Source of the DNA: an uncultured Chloroflexia bacterium
GTDB taxonomy: Bacteria > Chloroflexota > Limnocylindria > Limnocylindrales > CSP1-4
NCBI GenBank assembly: GCA_963748625.1
Contig: CAVVJT010000010.1
Span: forward strand, 480,001 to 544,000
Direction: 5' to 3'
Length of the DNA stretch: 64,000 nucleotides
Shown: positions 14,341 through 59,666 of the stretch, in pieces
Layout of the letters: every line of letters begins with the position of its first letter
Numbering within the stretch: the stretch's first letter is position 1
Translations under genes and position numbers: made by a program
Notes under the pieces: model-generated
Databases searched by the model: none
Told to the model about the DNA's origin: nothing
The model's input: the letters and a program-made list of their open reading frames with translations, nothing else

Positions 14341-14354
14341 GGCCCCTTCGGGCA
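14341..14354. promoter_or_regulatory. Palindromic box GGCCC-CTTC-GGGCA (one mismatch to TGCCC-N4-GGGCA)
   Basis: About 70 bp upstream of the 14272 operon; matches boxes upstream of the other eCIS blocks. Confidence 0.55.
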
Positions 14355-14402
14355 GAAGTGCACGGCCCGCCAGCGACCGCCCCGGCCGCCCGGCGGTCTC
14401 CC

Positions 14403-17400
14403 TCAGCCTCCGGGCCCGCCCACGAGCACGCGAGGCGGGATGGTCACCGTCAGGCGGCGGTACGTGCCACGCCGCCCGGCGATGTCCGCGCTGGCCTCGG
14501 GACTCAGCTCGGTCCCCTCGACGACGTCGAGCGTCCCGTCAGCCCGCTCGAGCTGGATGGAGGGCTGGTCGCCCAGCCGGTAGCACACGGGCACCTGGCA
14601 GCAGGTGAAGGCGAGGCTGCCCGCCGGCAGGTCCCACGCCGCCTCCGAGCCGTCGATGTCGAGGCTGGTGAAGCGGAACGGGTCCTCGAGGAACTCGTCC
14701 CGGTGCAGCAGCCTCGGCTCGAACCGCAGGCAGCCGTCCCGGACCTCCACGCCCAGCTCGCCGAACCGGAGGAGGATGTCCTCCTTCGCCTGGCCGGTCA
14801 TGCCCGGCTGCTGGGCCCCGCGGTGGCGAGGCGAATGGGAGTGCGGATCCACGGGGAAGGCACCGAACACGTCCGGCGTCTTGCGTGAGCCCAGACCCTC
14901 CCTGGCCTCGTCGTAGAAGCGGGCCAGGTCGGCGCCGATCTCCGGGTCCCGCGCACGCAGATGGCAGGCCTGGACGGCCAGCAGGAACTTCGACGTCATG
15001 TGCCAGAAGACGCTGCCGAGCCCTTCGAACATGAAGAAGCGGTCGCTGCGGCCCGTGAACTCGTGGTGGGCGAACGTCGTCCGCCAGAGCTCCAGCACGG
15101 CCTCGCGCGTCGCTGCGTCCACGCCGGTGCGCCGCAGTTGGGCCTCGACGTCCGCACTGGTGCTCAGGTCCGCCCCGAAGTGCCACCGTCCGTGACGGTC
15201 CATCACGAACAGCCGCTCGCTGCCCGCCGGCGGTGGCCCGTCGAGCGTGTTCCGCTCGAGGAAGGGGGTCAGCTGCCGGTCGGGGTAGAGCAGGAAGGTG
15301 CGCAGGTCCGCGCGCCACAGGTCGCTGGCCCGCAGCGCGCGCAGCAGCGCGAGCGCCTCGGCATCGTCGAGCAGCCCCGACTCCAGCACCGCCACCTGGC
15401 CTTCCAGCATGGGGCTCAACCGGTCGACGGCTGCCCGGTCTGCCTCGACGCGCAGCACGTTGTAGCTGTGGTAGAGGCCATCGGGGCGCCGGTTCGCGCG
15501 AATCGTGCGATCCACGACCGGCAGGGCGGCCTGGAGCAGGGCCCGGGCAGTCGAGAGCGGCATGTCCACGAGCTCGCCGAGATCGGCCTCGTAGACCGCC
15601 GCCCGGTACTCCTCGCCGGCCTCGCCCAGCGCGCCCATGAGGGCGAGCCGGCGGGTGTCGTCGATCTCGCCGGGAACGCCCCCCAGGATCGCGGTCACGC
15701 GCTCCACGAGGCGCACGACGGACGCCGACACGGGAGCGGAGCCGGTGGCGGGCACCACGTCGAGCAGCAGCTGCACGTACCGGCGCATCGCCGCAACGGT
15801 GACCACCGACAGGCCCCAGCCCGCGAGGGCGTTGTTGGCATCGTTCCACTCGGGCCGCTGGGTGTGGAGCCACGTGCCGCCCTCGGGCACCAGGCTGGTG
15901 AGCTTGGCCAGCAGGGGGACGAGGAGCTTCTCGCACAGGGACACGAGCCTGACCTCGCCCTGTCCGTCGTCCAGGAGCTTCCCGTCGGCGCCTAGGTCCC
16001 GGGCCCTGGCCATCAGCGCCAGATTGAGGGCCTTGTCGAACTCGATCGACTCCCGCGGGTTGGCCAGCAGCTCCTGGAAGACGGCGATCCGGTACGGGAC
16101 CCGGGTGTAGGCGTAGCCGAGCTCGGCCAGCCCGCCGGCCAGCGCTCCGGGCTGCCAGCGCTCCAGGCTCTCCAGGAGCCTGTGCAGGTACACGACCTGG
16201 TGGTCGCCCCAGTAGCCGATGTGGCTCCAGGGGTCGCGCTCGTCCGGGACCTCCCAGTCGCCCCCGTCCCGGGTGATCCGGTAGGGGTTGTAGCCGTCGG
16301 CGGTGCTGGCGTCGAGGAACACGGCGATGAACTGGCGCAGGTAGCCTGGATAGCTCCGCCCGAGTGCCTCCCAGTTCTGGAAGATGTCGCGCCAGTTGCC
16401 CTCGTAGCCGTACAGCGGCCGCCCGCCCTCGTCCCGGAGCCGGATGTTGAAGCGGTTCCAGGGGCGGCTCGGGTCCCCGTGACGGCGGCTGAACGTGAGC
16501 GGCAGGTAGGTGCGCAGCAGCCGTGAGAGCTGCGGGTCGGCGCGGTCGGCGGCCATGCGCTGCAGGTCATCGGCCGGCACCGAGGCGGGCAGCCCGGCGA
16601 GCCACTCGGCGTGGCGCTTGTGCACCCCGCGGCTATGGCGCCGCAGGTGGTCGGCGACATCGGCGACCGGCGCGTCGTAGGTGCCGTCGAACGTCCCGCC
16701 CCGCATCGCGTTGTACAGGACGCTCGCCACGTGATGCGCGGTCGCGGCCTCGTCGGCCGTGTGCTGGAGGGCATCGCCGGAGGCGACGCGGCGCAGGATC
16801 CCGGACCGGCTCTCGTCGACCGCCGCCCGGAGGTCGCGCGCGAGCGACTCCGCGGCGTCGAAGCGGTCACGGAGGTCGATGACGGCCGCATGGTCGAGAC
16901 CGGTGTCCGCGACGGTGGACCACATGTGCCGGGCGCCGCCGCCGAGGTGCACGCCGTCCACCACGAGGTAGGCGCCCAGCTCACCGCGGACCTCGGCTTC
17001 GGCCCGCACCGGGGCTCCCCGGCGGAACAGGTCCGACCTGGCGGTCGCTGAGCAGGATGACGGGGTCAGCATGGCCGACCGACCAGGCTGCCGCCACGCG
17101 CAGCGACTCGGACGGCTCGGGCCGGTCCGAGATGGCTGCGTTGAGCGTGAACACCGCGAGCGGCGTCCCGGCGATCCGCTCGTGCCGCATGTAGGCCGCG
17201 GCGAGGTAGCTGAGACGCGCGTAGACCTCCTGGGACACACCGGGCGGGATCAGGTGGTGCCAGCCGTCGAGGTACCGGATGTCGGCCGGGTCCGCCCCGA
17301 GGTTCTCGAGCACGACGTCGCGCACGAGGCCGAACGCATCGCATCCGGCGAGCCTGGCACGGAACCGCAGCCCGAGGTCATGGTTGACCTCCTCGAACAC

Positions 17401-17814
17401 CAGGCTGGTCCCGGCGACGCACTTGTACAGGTTGCGGGTGATCGAGTACACCCGTTCGCAGTCCTGCCACGGCTCCCACAGCGAGGTTCGCCCGTCGCGG
17501 GTCACGAGCAGGACGGTGCGTGCGCCGCTCGTGTCGGCGTGCTCGAGGACCCGGTCCACCGTCTGGTACGGGAAGAGGGCAAGGTCGGGGTTGCGCCGTC
17601 CCGCCGTGAACGGTCCGTTCGACCCGGCGAACAGCCACAGGTCGCAATCGCTCACGACGTTCATCAGGAACGGCGCCATGCCGTCCACGTTCAGGATCTG
17701 CGCGTAGCGCTCGCCGTCGATCGTTGCGAACCCGCCGCCGACGGCGGCATCGGATGCGTGGAGGACGGCTTCCCCGAGATGGATCCCGGGGCTCGTGTTG
17801 ATCACGCGTTGCAC
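14403..17814 (-). CDS. GH149-family beta-1,3-glucan phosphorylase (frameshift near 17040)
   Basis: ~1130 aa across two frames; motifs FSRRHGDPSRPWN, YEGNWRDIFQNWEAL, IGYWGDHQ, EGLGSVFWHM, GAQQPGMTGQ; adjacent to GH16. Confidence 0.75.
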
Positions 17815-58864: not shown

Positions 58865-59581
58865 GGGCGGTGGCCGCGCACCCGGAGCACAACCCCACCG
58901 CGATCCTTCTCGGGCACGGCCGGGACCGTCTCCTCGGGCAGCGGCGCGGCCTCGGCGATGGACGCGCTGGCGGCGCCAGGCCGGCCCTGGACGAGCTCGG
59001 GCGACGCCCCCTTGGCCGCGATCCCGATGGTCGGCCCCTCGTGGACGGGCGGCCCGTACGGCGCCGTGCTGCCGACCGCGATCGGCGCGGTCACCACGAC
59101 GTCCAGCGACGGCTTGAGCTCCCCGCCCAAGCGCGGACCAGATGTCCGCGAGCGACCGGTCCTGCGACTCGGGCTGGCCCACGTCGATGTAGACGGGCAG
59201 GTCGGTCAGGTCGAGCGAGCCCCCGAGGTCGCCCGGCTTGAGCATCGGGTTGCGCAGGAAGCACAGCAGCAGCGACGACAGCAGGCGGTGCTCGTCCTCG
59301 GGGCGCTGGGTCCACGCCGTCACGAGGTAGGCCAGCCGGAACCGGCGCGGCGGCTGGCGGCGGCCGTCCACCTCGCCCGCTGGGCCGCGCGTGTCCTCCC
59401 AGGCCGGCACGCGCCGCGCGAGGTCCTCGCGGATGTCGTAGAGGTACAGGTTGACCGACGGCCCGCTGCGGCGCGCGACCCAGTCCTTGGTGGGCGCATC
59501 GAACACGAGGTCCACCCCGGACCCGTTGAGGGCGTCGCGGCGGACCAGCTTCTCGAGCAGCTGGTCAACGTCGTGGATCAT
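58861..59581 (-). CDS. DUF4255 / Afp16-Pvc16-like tail terminator (frameshift near 59130)
   Basis: MIHDVD, FDAPTKDW, VNLYLYDIRED, YLVTAW..EDEHRLL, WSALGGELKPSLD. Confidence 0.88.
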
Positions 59582-59652
59582 GCGCGTGATCGTCGGCCCG
59601 CCGGCCCATCGACCGCCAGCCGGTCTCGGGCACGAGTCAGGGCAGCGCTGGT

Positions 59653-59666
59653 TGCCCTTTCGGGCA
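59653..59666. promoter_or_regulatory. Palindromic box TGCCC-TTTC-GGGCA between divergent DUF4255 and sheath genes
   Basis: Perfect match with extra GGGCA half-sites just upstream. Confidence 0.7.

Follow-up and report, generated by a model that had tools for sequence, protein, structure and literature searches.

The cytoplasmic CIS of Streptomyces coelicolor and S. lividans (sco4242-sco4263, SLP) is a phage-tail-like contractile injection system whose particles act on the cell that makes them; since 2007 its switch has been understood in genetic terms only (SCO4263, bldA). Its published control comprises SCO4263, bldA, sigma-E and PhoP, with no operator named in the parts of those sources covered here, and the sco4253 promoter depends fully on SCO4263 (PMC2000904). 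The 64,000-nucleotide stretch of Chloroflexota DNA analysed here (the window) encodes a predicted machine of the same type: sheath, tube, Pvc16/DUF4255, AAA ATPase and DUF4157 genes (Pfam) form one cluster that is syntenic with actinomycete clusters (sheath identity 55-69%), and 0-13 kb past the window end come the genes for spike and baseplate, together with a STAND-wHTH-BTAD regulator that is frameshifted. Shared with S. coelicolor are the sheath, tube, Pvc16, ATPase, DUF4157 and Ig-fold genes, a small response regulator, and a palindromic box that also stands in the published sco4253 promoter, whilst the large regulator here is of SARP type and the regulon includes orphan genes on other contigs. 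The analysis adds a concrete putative operator, another protein as candidate direct activator, and a proposed cascade; the box would also allow cargo genes to be found far from the machine.

The 14-bp palindromic box is a real motif and a regulatory one, with the consensus TGCCCGWWCGGGCA plus an extra half-site 7-9 nt to the promoter side, and its loop is itself conserved and palindromic. An earlier note on this DNA had listed six sites; all six are present with the spacers it gave, and all lie outside gene calls as it had claimed (Table 1). Four perfect copies were observed, whereas shuffled sequence had 0.13 ± 0.34 and none of 100 shuffles had as many as four; with 18 copies across the genome of 4.63 Mb, the Poisson probability of four in the window is 1.3e-4. 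At the one-mismatch level the window holds nine matches against 5.7 expected, which is not significant, and over the whole genome the palindrome with an N4 spacer occurs 18 times, no more often than those with spacers of other lengths (9-37 copies). Further one-mismatch matches had been overlooked at 22106 (inside a called gene), 38891 (in the toxin-like gene) and 62366; the last was rejected as a seventh operator because it overlaps the start of a reading frame and is not conserved in relatives. The sugar and sulfate genes do lack the box, with none of 21 called insert genes reaching an upstream matrix score of at least 10 (maximum 9.5).

Table 1. Boxes, promoter elements and genes of the window.
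Feature	Position	Strand	Description
Accessory operon	6056..14293	-	Pfam, synteny; divergent from luxR in relatives
Box GGCCCCTTCGGGCA	14341..14354		One mismatch, score 15.1; left copy of duplicated ancestral luxR/Ig box
Inserted sugar-use block	14403..29163		GH149 phosphorylase pieces, ABC transporter, enolase-like gene; without box
Box TGCCCATTCGGGCA	29175..29188		Perfect; right copy of duplicated box; TGCCC half-site follows at 29198
SARP-type luxR promoter	29202..29246	+	11-bp-period repeats at 29202, 29213, 29224 (degenerate)
luxR promoter elements	29215; 29241	+	TTGACT; -10-like TAGGGT; putative function
Small NarL/FixJ-type regulator	29320..29964	+	214 aa; atypical receiver domain and LuxR HTH; proposed box binder
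Very large cargo-like gene	31567..40559	-	Several frames; left in pieces
-10-like CACGAT at tandem boxes	40643-40638	-	
Tandem boxes	40692-40705; 40714-40727		One mismatch; perfect; 22 bp apart
Inserted block	40868..52501		MalT-like regulator in two frames, sulfatase pieces, sulfate and chloride transporters; without box
DUF4157 (eCIS core) gene	52555..53160	-	Bears N-terminal signature
Box TGCCCCAACGGGCA	53246..53259		Perfect, top score 20.7; divergent DUF4157/effector promoter
Cargo-like gene	53322..56375	+	1017 aa; no Pfam or NCBIfam family
Pvc16 (DUF4255)-AAA ATPase gene	56714..59581	-	Pfam
Bidirectional operator array	59628..59691		GGGCA 59628 and 59640; perfect box 59653-59666; CGCCC 59675 and 59687
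-10-like GAGCGT, sheath promoter	59724..59729	+	Putative; same register as mapped S. coelicolor sco4253 start
Sheath, tube, DUF6760, further genes	59769..64000	+	Sheath 59769-61283, tube 61319-61816

The note had read the box as marking five dispersed blocks. A single injection-system regulon survives from that reading, whilst the independence of the blocks does not, since two insertions have broken up what is a single cluster. In relatives luxR adjoins the Ig-fold operon in 28 of 29 loci and lies 4.5-15.4 kb from the sheath gene (both on one contig in 29 of 33 genomes), so the 45-kb spread seen here reflects the two inserts. A 28-bp imperfect repeat borders the sugar-use insert, sites 14341 and 29175 being a 28-bp duplicate of one ancestral box (23 of 28 positions identical), and the 40868..52501 insert is missing from the clusters of five relatives.

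Sheath genes of relatives, where the note had proposed to look, carry the box in 30 of 30 Limnocylindrales loci, 112-119 nt upstream of the ATG (17 perfect, 11 with one mismatch, 2 with two). Divergent promoters there have a third half-site on both sides (24/30 and 29/30). The same box extends to a second phylum: in the sco4253 promoter of S. coelicolor, taken from a published supplement, a perfect copy spans -127 to -114 (hand count, PMC10020575 Suppl. Fig. 7). Among actinomycetes, a sheath box with at most one mismatch occurs in 20 of 28 clusters with a small NarL-type regulator but in only 1 of 22 without, and one with a matrix score of at least 10 in 15/28 and 0/22, where lacking the regulator means no match at E<=1e-45 among the 8 candidates that were scored in each genome; because the two groups are separate lineages, this contrast amounts to few events. 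Eight of the 28 regulator-bearing sheath promoters have no box with at most one mismatch, and a box was found in one of five actinomycetes that carry the other type of sheath. The actinomycete third half-site lies downstream of the box in 24 of 24 cases as against 2 of 24 upstream. A published S. coelicolor primer matched none of the metagenome contigs and 0/401 genomes of that genus. The box is unnamed in the literature searched, which lay outside subscription papers and bioRxiv supplements; bldA MEME motif 10 (RAVCTGCCCGASACC) was rejected as an earlier report of it, as the SCO4246 site, in the portion of the source covered, is located downstream of the start codon and differs from the palindrome.

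As to which protein would read the box, the note's answer, the LuxR-type regulator at 29320, is the best candidate binder by co-occurrence: among 60 genus genomes, 33 have both sheath and small regulator, 25 neither and 2 one alone. Its HTH is recognised as GerE (Pfam, E 1e-12), its closest solved relative is VraR (E 2e-17, residues 44-214), and it has the NarL/FixJ architecture of a receiver-like N-terminus and a LuxR HTH, with a recognition helix S-x-R-T-x-K-N that is near invariant (68 locus rows, duplicates included). The roles of conserved receiver residues are well established; here the conserved Lys is replaced by Arg and the acidic pocket is incomplete, so this is no canonical phospho-receiver. 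No kinase was found among the mapped genes of five relatives' clusters and, with the Arg substitution, this makes a transcriptional input probable. NarL/FixJ operators such as those of VraR and NarL likewise combine an inverted-repeat site with tandem weaker sites read by a receiver and LuxR HTH protein, and DosR and BldM provide further examples of the family; this system differs from them in box sequence, in the Arg and in having no adjacent kinase. On gene order the regulator is likely of SCO4261 type. It was rejected as SlpR/SCO4263, a class of ~950-1250 aa with an AAA domain, a C-terminal LuxR HTH and a TTA codon, since it has 214 aa and no AAA domain as against 1251 aa for SCO4263 (PMC3282765); LAL genes adjoin its homologue in three genomes (G278, G316, G361). 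The MalT-like protein (41841-43154), offered as an alternative binder, was dropped because its presence is unrelated to that of the system: it occurs in 5 of 19 genomes that have the system and in 8 of 17 that lack it. Searched against plasmid sequences, the 29320 regulator had no match.

Autoregulation, which the note had also proposed, is uncertain: most relatives have only a degenerate box at the luxR promoter, where the element under strong conservation is another one, a direct-repeat motif. A strict 11-bp repeat occurs at this promoter in 25 of 29 relatives. In the window the 29213 repeat stands 28 nt before TAGGGT (29241), as at afsS, the start being predicted and the promoter-proximal repeat degenerate; this putative SARP-promoter geometry matches that of AfsR-type promoters, whose afs box, in the part of the source covered, consists of 11-bp direct repeats, the upstream one running from -40 over the -35 region (PMC10936776). 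Of 9 actinomycete genomes that carry the strict repeat, 8 also have the SARP match, and LAL-type clusters have either in 0 of 3. The SARP-type gene, frameshifted in this assembly, co-occurs with the system as tightly as the small regulator (32 of 33 genus genomes). A PHO-box reading of the 11-bp repeats was rejected on poor fit, by eye, to the published consensus. These repeats suggest a two-tier cascade, likened to the hierarchical control from PimR (SARP-LAL) to PimM (PAS-LuxR) in the section of that work covered (PMC5930380). The proposed cascade differs from these AfsR and PimR precedents in that it would control an injection machine rather than an antibiotic cluster, its SARP domain lies C-terminal to a MalT-like NTPase, and its top tier would be swapped between lineages whilst the lower tier stays.

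Boxes also lie far from the cluster. The motif LQR..GN.AV, which we take to be an N-terminal eCIS cargo signature, is common to the DUF4157 gene, the in-cluster cargo-like genes and the start of sco4254. Distant boxes precede it at 27 of 46 sites, compared with 3 of 21 sites where the genome lacks this sheath and 3 of 3000 places drawn at random, which points to a genome-wide regulon; the note's idea of using the motif to find distant effectors thus yielded cargo-like (putative effector) genes, with bodies in 14 BLAST groups. A -10-like hexamer 43-46 or 55-59 nt from the box, windows picked after inspecting the data, is found on the cargo side at 18 of 29 sites and on the other side at 2 of 29. 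The remaining 19 of 46 distant sites lack the signature, actinomycetes show it at only 2 of 12, strong sites in the window's own genome stay unexplained (C2:115407, C10:1091081, C10:1042835, C4:484906), and only three of six signature genes outside the window score above 11. Known effectors lie within ten genes of the cluster in 88% of cases (PMC11297309), and current prediction relies on cluster proximity and DUF4157. As the box retrieves small cargo-like genes on other contigs and DUF4157 occurs once in this genome, uncultured Chloroflexota, which are abundant in soil and sediment, may have more putative cargo for such machines than cluster-based counts suggest.

The box holds its position, is conserved in two phyla, is linked to cargo-like genes and co-occurs with the small regulator. 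We consider it probable that TGCCCGWWCGGGCA with its half-site is a conserved site before Streptomyces-type CIS and likely cargo genes, and the operator of the 29320 activator. A dimer of the small regulator would occupy the palindrome and a second dimer would sit one to two helical turns closer to the -35 region, recruiting RNA polymerase to weak promoters with the box centre near -63 or -76. The small regulator would itself be switched on by a large ATP-binding regulator, here the STAND-wHTH-BTAD (SARP-type) protein by way of the 11-bp repeats and, in S. coelicolor-type clusters, a LAL protein (SCO4263/SlpR).

That the large regulator (a SCO4263/SlpR-type LAL, or STAND-SARP here) binds the box instead, either by itself or assisted by the small protein, is distinctly unlikely, even though SCO4263 is the sole regulator with genetic proof of need for sheath transcription (PMC2000904, PMC8505568) and the SARP-type gene accompanies the system so tightly. 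The DNA-binding domains of these regulators are unrelated (LuxR HTH versus winged helix-BTAD), yet the box is unchanged, being kept in 8 genomes without a SARP-type match and in clusters whose large regulator is a LAL; SARPs, moreover, bind direct repeats according to the part of the source covered (PMC10936776), and the luxR promoter has repeats of this kind. Half-sites extending into the -35 region, strong sites adjoining unrelated genes, and the action of PhoP and sigma-E on these promoters in S. coelicolor (PMC2275107, PMC6767563) would suit a small regulator that represses, or a genome-wide regulator from outside the cluster, a reading we find unlikely: the main box lies upstream of the -35 region with fixed phasing, and tracks the cluster over two phyla, the other sheath type having it in only 1 of 5 actinomycete genomes.

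Least credible, and very improbable, is a reading of the palindrome as an RNA hairpin or a repeat, or as a chance pick from DNA of 72% GC. Across the genome it shows no enrichment relative to other spacers, and genomes without the system carry a hairpin-like repeat with TGCCCCTTCGGGCA in it as well as a repeated TGCCCATACGGGCA element; however, 170 arm pairs (34 distinct sheath boxes) include no compensatory change and 24 broken pairs, the loop is conserved and palindromic, and the position is fixed across phyla, upstream of a mapped start site. A hairpin was rejected for the cluster sites on the lack of compensatory changes, and positional conservation without compensatory pairing is the pattern of a protein-bound operator.

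Beyond the operator reading, we give an even chance to a wider scheme in which one box would govern the entire Streptomyces-type injection system in two phyla, its reader, an atypical and so far unstudied NarL-type activator of the SCO4261 family, would be the fixed middle tier of a cascade, the top sensor would be swapped (LAL or STAND-SARP), SCO4263/SlpR would act only indirectly, and orphan cargo would be recruited by box plus loading peptide. If orphan cargo gains a box and a short loading peptide, the two together would form a proximity-free rule for eCIS cargo.

Among the window's other genes, the accessory operon begins with an Ig-fold gene (12986-14293), followed by PD40/Ig, zinc-ribbon/F5-8 and two unannotated genes. 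Three sediment metatranscriptome runs from one study have contigs over sheath, tube and DUF6760, with start, strand and level not shown; they were located using that same stretch and are excluded from the evidence. The very large gene at 31567..40559 combines the N-terminal LQR..GN.AV signature with an annexin-like repeat and an SsdA-like deaminase end. The cargo-like gene at 53322 has a -10-like TACGCT 6 nt upstream of its ATG and is likely leaderless.

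All six sites of the 14-base palindrome TGCCC-N4-GGGCA described in the earlier note, perfect at 29175, 40714, 53246 and 59653 and with one mismatch at 14341 and 40692, were recovered, and all lie between genes as called by our own hexamer model. The four perfect copies compare with 0.13 expected in the window, in keeping with the low chance expectation claimed. Taken alone, the window evidence for a regulatory box is only suggestive, because the palindrome is not enriched across the 4.63-Mb genome (18 copies; 9-37 for other spacer lengths) and the number of one-mismatch matches in the window is not significant. 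A matrix built from 29 relatives alone, own genome excluded (consensus TGCCCGWWCGGGCA), scored all six sites at 15-21. Scores of at least 15 occurred upstream of 15 of 4039 genes in this genome, and none of the 21 insert genes reached 10, bearing out the reported absence of the box before sugar and sulfate genes. Four other strong intergenic matches (Table) adjoin genes without an evident injection-system link, and are either chance or additional regulon members.

Upstream of sheath genes in relatives, where the earlier note had suggested looking, each of the best 30 of 37 loci has a box 112-119 nt ahead of the ATG (no mismatch in 17, one in 11 and two in 2). From a draw of 351 actinomycete genomes (small NarL-type regulator in 31, sheath in 58), 50 sheath promoters were examined, 28 with the regulator and 22 without, the latter including one Chloroflexota locus. 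Matrix scores of at least 10 were found in 15/28 vs 0/22, and a box with at most one mismatch in 20/28 (mostly at -104 to -124) vs 1/22, a contrast that counts as few independent events since the two groups are lineages. By hand count on Suppl. Fig. 7 of PMC10020575, a perfect box occupies -127..-114 relative to the sheath ATG in the S. coelicolor sco4253-54 promoter, with half-sites at -106 and -94. The sco4253 start site at -32, fully SCO4263-dependent (PMC2000904), would place the S. coelicolor GAGGCT -10 in the same register as the window's GAGCGT at 59724.

The possibility that the box acts as an RNA hairpin was rejected on its arm pairs: among 34 distinct sheath boxes, 138 are unchanged, 8 wobble and 24 broken, with no compensatory change, and the element reads instead as a DNA site. 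A third half-site stands 7-9 nt sheathward of the box in 24/24 actinomycete promoters vs 2/24 upstream (4/28 were omitted because their box is offset or missing near that position), and on both sides of the divergent Limnocylindrales promoter (24/30 and 29/30); the element is directional. In windows picked post hoc, 43-46 or 55-59 nt past the box, a -10-like hexamer occurs in 18/29 cases on the cargo side vs 2/29 on the other. A -10-like hexamer with an in-frame start 5-7 nt further on occurs in 15/29, against 4/29 on the other side with no frame requirement. This placement of half-site and -10 fits an activator. Genus genomes without the injection system contain a hairpin-like intergenic repeat with core TGCCCCTTCGGGCA and flanking inverted arms (e.g. 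TTCGTC...GACGAA), a separate element mimicking the box. TGCCCATACGGGCA occurs at eight places in G045 (L139-L141), a genome without this sheath, and these copies are probably part of a dispersed repeat.

Pfam searches of the window revealed the sheath, tube, Pvc16-ATPase, DUF4157, an Ig-fold operon and the 214-aa LuxR-type gene at 29320, whose closest named relatives are in Limnocylindrales/Chloroflexia MAGs. Sheath and small regulator occur together in 33/60 genus genomes and are both missing from 25/60; one has only a sheath (38% identical) and one, 62% complete, only the regulator. In 28/29 relatives' loci no more than 1.5 kb separates luxR from the Ig gene, and the luxR-sheath distance is 4.5-15.4 kb in the 29/33 genomes that have both on one contig, vs 30 kb in the window. 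What had been taken for dispersed blocks over 45 kb is thus one locus in relatives, spread here by two insertions. A 28-bp repeat (23/28 identical) begins at sites 14341 and 29175, and as relatives have a single box to which both of these align, they are one ancestral site. A 14.8-kb sugar-use block is bounded by this imperfect direct repeat, which is itself the putative operator, so that each of the two promoters it separates kept a box; the called genes showed no integrase. Several genes are multi-frame (large cargo-like gene, MalT-like gene, sulfatase, GH149, SARP-type regulator), through either assembly errors or decay; SARP genes are also split in several relatives.

Table. Positions of insertions, repeats, additional boxes and selected genes (C, contigs of this genome, with the window at C10:480001-544000; L, fetched loci).
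Feature	Window	This genome	Other loci
Sugar-gene insertion	14.4-29.2 kb		
MalT/sulfatase insertion	40.9-52.5 kb		
28-bp direct repeat	14341-14368, 29175-29202		
Multi-frame genes	31567-47700	C10:553851-557389	
TGCCCCTTCGGGCA repeat		C3:102437, C4:514309	L122-L126, L132-L134, L137, L138
Other strong matrix matches		C2:115407, C10:1091081, C10:1042835, C4:484906	
Perfect NWWC boxes outside window		C2:241353, C7:626017	
Weaker distant box		C4:49342	
Cargo-like protein, kinase-like by eye	53322-56375		
YTPGAGN-tail family		C4:49595-49888	L085, L088, L099
66-aa signature gene		C10:750741-750941	

The MalT-like gene, the alternative binder of the earlier note, was rejected as it does not track the system (5/19 genomes with it vs 8/17 without). 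The box has a single common partner, the small regulator with its near invariant recognition helix, and is retained in 8 genomes without a SARP match; we infer that this regulator reads the proposed operator. Its autoregulation fared less well: feedback is possible, a half-site overlapping the first repeat of the luxR promoter, but most relatives have a degenerate version of the full box at that promoter. Identity with SlpR/SCO4263 was rejected, the window's protein having 214 aa vs 1251 aa (PMC3282765 Table 1); SCO4261 being a small response regulator whose intergenic region is common with SCO4263 (PMC2275107), the protein is by gene order of the SCO4261 type.

Past the window end lies a STAND-wHTH-BTAD gene, frameshifted here and present in 32/33 system-bearing relatives. 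The luxR promoter carries GTTRAG-N5-GTTGAS repeats of 11-bp period, strict in 25/29 relatives. One repeat is placed 28 nt upstream of the -10, exactly the arrangement of AfsR's afs box (PMC10936776). Among 9 actinomycete genomes in which the repeat is strict, 8 gave a SARP-type match. In three S. coelicolor-type clusters, where both repeat and match are lacking, a TTA-containing LAL gene (950-1165 aa) is divergent from the small regulator. Upstream of the latter in S. coelicolor-type loci L208, L214 and L224, CTCGTGG repeats end in the inverted repeat TCGTGG-N4-CCACGA, which may be where the SCO4263/SlpR-type LAL regulator binds. We consider a cascade likely, in which a large ATP-binding sensor would turn on the small atypical NarL-type regulator, whose dimers, occupying the palindrome and the half-site beside it, would activate the promoters of structural, accessory and cargo genes, a single central box serving divergent gene pairs.

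The box is a real regulatory element, a putative operator with a genome-wide regulon, of a machine itself known. The operator is apparently not previously described: it is not named in the available parts of PMC10020575 (with supplement 1), PMC2000904 (with supplement), PMC8505568, PMC10286715, PMC11126660, PMC13277306 (including section 5), PMC11297309, PMC10066040, PMC2275107, PMC6767563, PMC3282765, PMC10936776, PMC10598620, PMC4173021 and PMC5930380, and no prior report was found in literature outside closed journals and preprint supplements.

Outside the window, this genome has two perfect NWWC boxes, both before signature genes, and a weaker box also precedes a gene beginning LQR..GN.AV...VQR. 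The DUF4157 gene and the two cargo-like genes of the window have this motif as well; it is a putative cargo signature, which may mark proteins for loading. Among the matches listed, 67 distant perfect sites were fetched (36 entries left out; 3/8 G045 repeat copies used), and 27/46 in system-bearing genomes had a signature no further than 700 nt away (mostly 177-293), vs 3/21 in other genomes and 3/3000 random places. Among the genomes behind the 3/21 exceptions, G003 carries the large regulator of the cluster at the edge of a contig, and the sheath of G007 is divergent. The suggested use of the motif to find distant effectors holds in part, 19/46 of these listed sites lacking a signature. A strong box is absent from 3/6 signature genes outside the window, and in regulator-bearing actinomycetes a signature follows only 2/12 distant sites. 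Bodies of box-preceded signature proteins sort into 14 BLAST groups; 16 scanned bodies gave 4 peptidoglycan-binding, 2 DUF922 and 1 DUF6782 domains, and none in 9.

By eye, kinase-like features (VFKP, D.L..QVDR..GN, IDN) occur in the C-terminal 200 aa of one cargo-like protein of the window, a stretch with no Pfam or NCBIfam match. A box-preceded family of ~100-130 aa, without a Pfam match, combines the signature with a short conserved tail ending YTPGAGN, and a 66-aa gene consists of the signature alone.
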